Positions 3,698-4,189 of a stretch of DNA of 64,000 bases are shown here, piece by piece. The notes beneath the pieces were generated by a model. The model made no database searches. It was not told the DNA's origin and saw only the letters and a program-made list of their open reading frames with translations. The DNA is from Escherichia coli (lineage in GTDB: Bacteria > Pseudomonadota > Gammaproteobacteria > Enterobacterales > Enterobacteriaceae). Numbering within the stretch: the stretch's first letter is position 1; every line of letters starts with the position of its first letter. Both the position numbers and the translations under genes were made by a program. The stretch lies in NCBI RefSeq assembly GCF_003018115.1, contig NZ_CP027457.1; one strand, written 5' to 3'.

Positions 3698-4189
3698 GTA
3701 AGCGTCAACGGGGATGAAATACGGGGATTACCGGAGTCAGAGCGTCTTGCCGTCAGGCAGCAGCGAAGCAAAGTGTTACTAACGTCACTGCATGAATGGA
3801 TGGTGGAGAAGAATGGTACGCTGTCGAAAAAATCCAGACTGGGCGAAGCGTTCAGCTATGTACTGAATCAGTGGGATGCCCTCTGTTATTACAGTGATGA
3901 CGGTCTGGCGGAGGCGGATAATAATGCTGCGGAAAGAGCGCTTCGTGCAGTCTGTCTCGGAAAGAAAAACTTTATGTTCTTTGGCAGCGATCACGGCGGC
4001 GAGCGTGGAGCACTGTTGTACGGGCTGATCGGCACCTGCCGTCTGAACGGTATCGATCCGGAAGCGTATCTGCGCCATATCCTGAGCGTACTGCCGGAAT
4101 GGCCTTCCAACCGAGTTGATGAACTCCTGCCATGGAACGTAGTACTCACCAATAAATAAGCGTCAATACGGTGCTCCGTTGACGCTTAC
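3698..4189. mobile_element. Internally deleted IS66-family element remnant
   Basis: GTAAGCGTCAACGG at 3698-3711 and its inverted copy CCGTTGACGCTTAC at 4176-4189 (IS66-type ends start with GTAA) bracket only the 3' part of a tnpC-like ORF. Confidence 0.65.
3773..4159 (+). pseudogene. IS66-family transposase (TnpC) C-terminal fragment
   Basis: 128-aa ORF ...NNAAERALRAVCLGKKNFMFFGSDHGGERGALLYGLIGTCRLNGIDPEAYL...LPWNVV typical of IS66 transposase C-terminus; N-terminal ~75 percent missing. Confidence 0.75.

Follow-up and report, generated by a model that had tools for sequence, protein, structure and literature searches.

A probable ISEc23 rearrangement scar at the joint between two genomic-island modules of Escherichia coli

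A 492-bp unit in the Escherichia coli contig NZ_CP027457.1 (positions 3698–4189 of the 64-kb stretch analysed here, hereafter the window) is a rearrangement scar of two IS ends at the joint between two genomic-island modules. It combines a 14-nt left arm with 478 bp of the 3′ part of ISEc23, and it is very probably a dead scar of that element, passively inherited, and not a MITE.

Composition and identity of the 492-bp unit

The sequence GTAAGCGTCAACGG occurs exactly at 3698–3711 (plus strand) and at 4176–4189 (minus strand); the 64-kb window contains no further exact copy. The perfect inverted repeat extends to 15 nt when one flanking G/C is counted; mononucleotide shuffles of the window yielded a mean of 0.24 and a maximum of two perfect 14-nt inverted pairs within 1 kb. 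The inverted-repeat count also registered a perfect palindrome or hairpin at 9737–9775, which comprises several overlapping 14-nt inverted pairs only a few bases apart.

Positions 3712–4189 (plus strand) correspond to nt 2055–2532 of ISEc23 (blastn), with two mismatches in 478 positions (at 3781 and 3787; 99.6% identity) to the reference copy, an element of 2532 bp with the gene order tnpA-tnpB-tnpC (L002, 1956–4487) that is flanked by an 8-bp duplication (ATTTCTCC). Alignment of the two terminal repeats of the reference copy, IRL and IRR, and the position of the element end in L002 place the complete IRR (~24 nt) at 4166–4189 (minus strand). It overlaps the subterminal palindrome of the ISEc23 right end at 4157–4188 (TAAGCGTCAA, 12 nt, TTGACGCTTA), a 10-bp palindrome of the element's own tip, for which folding as DNA predicts a stable hairpin with a 12-nt loop (−12.7 kcal/mol; z = −6.15). 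What is missing relative to the reference are nt 15–2054, which comprise tnpA, tnpB, and 389 codons of tnpC. Judged by its sequence, the remnant is a member of the IS66 family, specifically of ISEc23.

The tnpC pseudogene fragment (3713–4159, plus strand; Pfam, tblastn, PGAP) encodes 148 residues followed by a stop codon, which represent residues 390–537 of TnpC. They are identical to the corresponding part of ISEc23 TnpC (100% over 149 positions; tblastn) and match the Pfam profiles DDE_Tnp_IS66 (profile positions 192–283 of 284; E = 1.2e-26) and DDE_Tnp_IS66_C (E = 5.6e-17). On these alignments, homology to IS66-type TnpC is certain, with only the C-terminal 148 residues of the gene product present. 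Homologs of ISEc23 TnpA and TnpB were not found anywhere in the window (tblastn), nor was there any other IS66 sequence outside the remnant (blastn and tblastn against the ISEc23 reference). The unit encodes no transposase function.

A megablast search of 5426 complete E. coli genomes yielded thousands of matches of 99%, annotated as ‘IS66-like element ISEc23 family transposase’, and one full-length match of 100% to the 492-bp query, located on the chromosome of strain 2014C-4135 (NZ_CP027310.1). This chromosome is 99.95% identical to the window, aside from an 8-nt VNTR, and contains six further places that match the query. The VNTR is a tandem repeat of GCGAATCA (5.5 copies at 6543–6586 of the window) with a difference in copy number; NZ_CP027310.1 is ~40 nt longer there. 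In the annotation of the same chromosome by PGAP, the tnpC fragment is labelled ‘IS66 family transposase, incomplete, missing N-terminus’. The fragment is therefore already known as an incomplete transposase pseudogene, and the finding is real but ordinary.

These results bear out much of the preliminary description, which had recognised an IS66-family remnant bounded by GTAAGCGTCAACGG inverted repeats: both arms match a genuine IS66-family end, the ~150 terminal codons of tnpC that it reported correspond to the 148 found here (the 3′ third of the gene), and tnpA, tnpB, and most of tnpC are indeed missing.

Flanking genes and distribution

The left flank (3676–3697, plus strand) is the start of a gene encoding the substrate-binding protein of a peptide ABC transporter and reads ATGAGCAATATCACCAGGAATAG, as in uninterrupted copies. 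It comprises the first seven codons and one base of the eighth, and the gene is broken exactly at the IS tip. In ~180 genomes, the flank runs on as the start of the binding-protein gene (...ATGAGCAATATCACCAGGAATAG/TTTAGTTGTAGC, with the slash marking the position of the break here and below), and uninterrupted copies of the gene, whose annotation names such a binding protein, read ...CACCAGGAATAG/TTTAGTTGTAGCAGG (L007, 7337–7370; also L008). The left junction is exact, with native ...AGGAATAG/TTTAGTTG versus ...AGGAATAG/GTAAGCG in the window. The foreign DNA thus starts precisely at the G of GTAAGCG, which indicates that the left tip was joined to the binding-protein target by transposition. 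The left flank was also considered as the 3′ end of a diverged tnpC, based on a resemblance (TCACCA..AATA..TAAGCGTCAA) and a reading frame ending in ITRNR and a stop; this idea was rejected because it is in this frame that the native binding-protein gene starts.

In the right flank (4190–4689, plus strand) lies the 3′ portion of an autotransporter gene of the SPATE type (sat-like). Also this junction is exact: homology to sat (87–88% identity) starts at 4190/4191, at the IS tip. The ORF downstream of the remnant matches the Pfam Autotransporter beta-domain, and PGAP classifies the sat-like fragment as a pseudogene missing its N-terminus.

An 8-bp target duplication (PMC3281130, Table 2) and a multi-ORF structure (PMC3281130) are general features of the IS66 family, and such duplications are present at the intact ISEc23 (ATTTCTCC) and at the nested element on plasmids described below (GAAAAAAT). 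The unit has no 8-bp duplication, as the preliminary description had already stated; the octamer to its left is AGGAATAG and the one to its right CCTTTGCC. The unit lies between two different genes, both of them interrupted, a configuration that a single insertion with internal deletion cannot yield.

A reciprocal junction, with either IS end (GCTTAC) beside AGGAATAGTTTAG, was not found. The same is true for a precursor with a full inverted ISEc23 or IRR at the binding-protein site (AGGAATAG/GTAAGCGTCAACGGAGCACC); this search returned only an unrelated match of 90.6% on pAA plasmids. An ISEc43 on the pAA plasmids of E. coli O104:H4 has an inverted right end (L015, 3490–3563) whose outside flank (CAATATCACTTAAATAAG) agrees with the left flank of the window (CAATATCACCAGGAATAG) at 12 of 18 nt, nine of them consecutive and at the same offset. 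No similarity to the left flank of the window was seen at four other IRR flanks, and the likeness of the pAA flank is probably due to chance.

The distribution of the unit was determined with the 30-nt deletion junction (3698–3727) as query against the E. coli genomes and PLSDB, and with a 29-nt version against metagenome_contigs and genome_contigs. The junction occurs in five of the 5426 complete E. coli genomes (one chromosome and four plasmids) and in six plasmid records of PLSDB, three of which, among them a plasmid of E. fergusonii and one of ECOR 3, are not in the first set. Altogether, there are eight distinct records (one chromosome and seven conjugative plasmids); the 29-nt query did not match any sequence of the metagenome or species-representative collections (metagenome_contigs and genome_contigs). 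The left context is identical in all eight records and consists of lutB, lutA, the lactate permease gene, and the stub of the binding-protein gene. The right flanks exist in three versions (CCTTTGCC, AGTTTTTT, and GAACAAAC), and one plasmid lacks the 3′ part. The unit represents a single ancestral locus and shows no MITE-like spread.

In all seven plasmids, which are conjugative and of the IncI/K type, a nested element of the IS66 family with tnpA, tnpB, and a frameshifted tnpC (L003, 4138–6564; also L004–L006 and L012–L014) interrupts the remnant; the target duplication of this element, GAAAAAAT, is equivalent to positions 3826–3833 of the window. Since the copy in the window lacks the nested element, the uninterrupted chromosomal copy represents the older state. 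At least two exchanges of the right flank have occurred, and another IS66-family element has inserted in the remnant.

The region to the left of the unit (1–3338) carries a mobile module for lactate utilisation, composed of lutA, lutB, and an L-lactate permease gene, which also occurs on conjugative plasmids and, in other strains, beside iha/sat in pathogenicity islands. Positions ~1–15000 of the window constitute a genomic island adjoining ycdU, with genes encoding a tyrosine integrase, a DUF3987 protein, an inovirus-type Gp2 protein, and zinc-ribbon proteins. There is no tRNA gene in the 64-kb window (ARAGORN).

Origin of the left arm and of the unit

The left arm (3698–3711, plus strand) equals the outer 14 nt of the right inverted repeat of ISEc23 and ISEc43 in inverted orientation, and is not the left end of ISEc23. 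The two ends of the reference ISEc23 (first bases of IRL, GTAAGCGTAAACTGACCGCCGTAT; of IRR in reverse complement, GTAAGCGTCAACGGAGCACCGTAT) are identical at 20 of 24 positions. The left arm agrees with the IRR at 14 of 14 positions and with the IRL, which reads GTAAGCGTAAACTG, at only 12. The sequence downstream of arm position 14 is internal to tnpC, and the inner repeat positions 15–24, a block that is conserved between the two ends of ISEc23, are absent. Compared to the terminal repeats expected of one element (an IRL and an IRR of ~20–30 bp that start with GTAAGCG), the unit possesses a complete IRR but on its left only 14 nt of the IRR type. A hybrid query, the left end of ISEc23 with the CAACGG tip in place of its own, attained at most 97.5% identity, a ceiling that equals the two mismatches; a CAACGG-tipped left end of ISEc23 was thus encountered in none of 8922 places among 5426 E. 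coli genomes.

Four results, namely the identities of the parts, the exactness of both outer junctions, the assignment of the left tip to the IRR type, and the confinement of the unit to one locus, allow a tentative reconstruction of the order of events and of the mechanism. The right 478 bp would be the 3′ end of one ISEc23 copy inserted in the sat-like autotransporter gene, and the left 14 bp would be the tip of a second right end of the ISEc23/ISEc43 type, which transposed in inverted orientation to codon 8 of the binding-protein gene. Two routes might have led to this arrangement. In the first, a single copy would have undergone replicative transposition of the inversion type within one molecule, creating both outer junctions without a flanking duplication (A-T-[IRR<-IRL]-B(inverted)-[IRL->IRR]-C); in the second, two copies would have inserted independently in inverted orientation. 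In either case, the scar would result from an illegitimate deletion that began at nt 15 in the inverted copy and ended at nt 2054 in the direct one. Since then, the scar has very probably been inherited only passively, together with the adjacent lutABC–lactate permease module on IncI/K-type plasmids and on the chromosome. The later exchanges of the right flank would fit homologous recombination with other copies of ISEc23. As a whole, this explanation, with two inverted ISEc23-type ends at two targets, a later deletion, and passive inheritance of the dead scar, is the best available and reasonably probable; for the specific model of two inverted ends and a deletion, the chances are roughly even.

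The deletion join itself (3711/3712; AACGG/GGATG) shows no microhomology; the internal tnpC sequence CGCCATCGA and CGTCAACGG agree at only six of nine positions. It is because of this resemblance that the BLAST match to ISEc23 reaches back to 3703. The left endpoint of the deletion sits in the loop of the subterminal IRR hairpin (TAAGCGTCAA, 12 nt, TTGACGCTTA), a position that may or may not be relevant to the deletion.

The left 14 nt might instead stem from the left end of another IS66-family member with the same tip, fused to a neighbouring ISEc23 by deletion or recombination. The ends examined have GTAAGCGT in common and vary at positions 9–14, which would accommodate such a donor. ISEc43 shares the IRR tip of ISEc23 but has a different IRL (GTAAGCGTAAAGCC), and the tips of the nested IS66 element on the plasmids differ again from those of both. 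Among the six ends examined, however, CAACGG at positions 9–14 is found exclusively in the IRR of ISEc23 and ISEc43, which renders this origin unlikely. An IRR donor is also more economical, because the arm matches exactly the IRR of the very element that adjoins it.

A simple internal deletion in one IS66-family copy, with the left arm as its own left repeat and loss of nt 15–2054, was the reading of the preliminary description. It would explain why the two arms are perfect inverted repeats of 14 nt with the family-typical start GTAAGCG and why the outer tip abuts the target exactly, as a true IS end would. But the left end of ISEc23 deviates at 2 of 14 positions although the remainder is 99.6% ISEc23, the CAACGG form is absent from every ISEc23 left end in the 5426 genomes, and a second rearrangement would be needed even so, given the two unrelated broken genes at the flanks and the lack of a duplication. 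The notion of an ‘internally deleted’ copy with its own two ends is therefore judged improbable.

The designation of the unit as ‘MITE-like’ is not supported either. A non-autonomous unit might have formed elsewhere, transposed once into AGGAATAG, and later lost its right duplication by recombination with ISEc23. The exact junction between left tip and target is compatible with such a history, the right flanks have demonstrably been swapped (three versions), so that the missing duplication alone is not decisive, and the six other ISEc23-like places in the chromosome might provide transposase in trans. Against this stand the lack of a second site, since the genome-wide search for further copies proposed in the preliminary description led to one locus lineage only (eight records, always beside the same lactate permease/lut module), the left flank common to all eight records, the zero matches in metagenome_contigs and genome_contigs, and the lack of positions 15–24, conserved between the two ends of ISEc23, in the left arm. 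Such an origin is highly improbable. Mobilisation of the unit in trans, which the preliminary description had considered possible, is unlikely, to judge from its shortened left arm: the left side retains only 14 of ~24 repeat positions, and the conserved block 15–24 is gone.

It is still a little less probable that the transposase itself created an ‘IRR-IRR’ mini-element by pairing of ISEc23 right ends, mobilisable with 14 nt of one end; such a unit would have inserted whole into the binding-protein gene before the swap of the right flank. The possibility that the left arm arose by chance, when the endpoint of the deletion placed GTAAG before an internal CGTCAACGG-like sequence, draws on the extension of the BLAST match to 3703 and the 6/9 similarity of CGCCATCGA but is negligible, because five flanking bases and three substitutions would have to coincide and because shuffled windows yield 0.24 such repeats on average. 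Comparison to the intact binding-protein gene, which places the start of the foreign DNA exactly at the first G of GTAAGCG, effectively refutes this possibility.

Significance and likeness to known systems

The unit is a routine product of IS activity that matters little and is useful mainly as a lineage marker. Its unique junction (GTAAGCGTCAACGG/GGATGAAAT) ties the chromosomal lutABC–lactate permease module to its counterpart on conjugative plasmids of the IncI/K type. The unit also illustrates that perfect inverted repeats at the two ends of an IS fragment are by themselves no sign of a simple internal deletion or of a mobilisable MITE.

The unit is 99.6% identical to ISEc23 over its right 478 bp, a part that contains both the complete IRR and the subterminal palindrome, and 100% identical in the C-terminus of TnpC. 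Unlike the intact element, which comprises tnpA-tnpB-tnpC, imperfect repeats of ~24 nt, and an 8-bp duplication, it lacks nt 15–2054, residues 1–389 of TnpC, the IRL, and the duplication. With MITEs, which are IS derivatives that arise by internal deletion, it has in common a small size (492 bp), terminal inverted repeats, and the lack of a functional transposase, but it differs from them in its restriction to a single locus, the absence of a duplication, a recognisable coding fragment, and one arm that consists of the outer 14 nt only. The unit also resembles the truncated remnants and solo ends of IS elements that are found where pathogenicity islands and plasmids of E. coli have been rearranged, with which it shares a pseudogenised transposase between two unrelated truncated genes, inheritance together with neighbouring cargo, variable flanks, and renewed insertion of other IS elements. 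The only unusual detail that distinguishes it from such remnants is the survival of a 14-nt inverted IRR tip at the deleted side.
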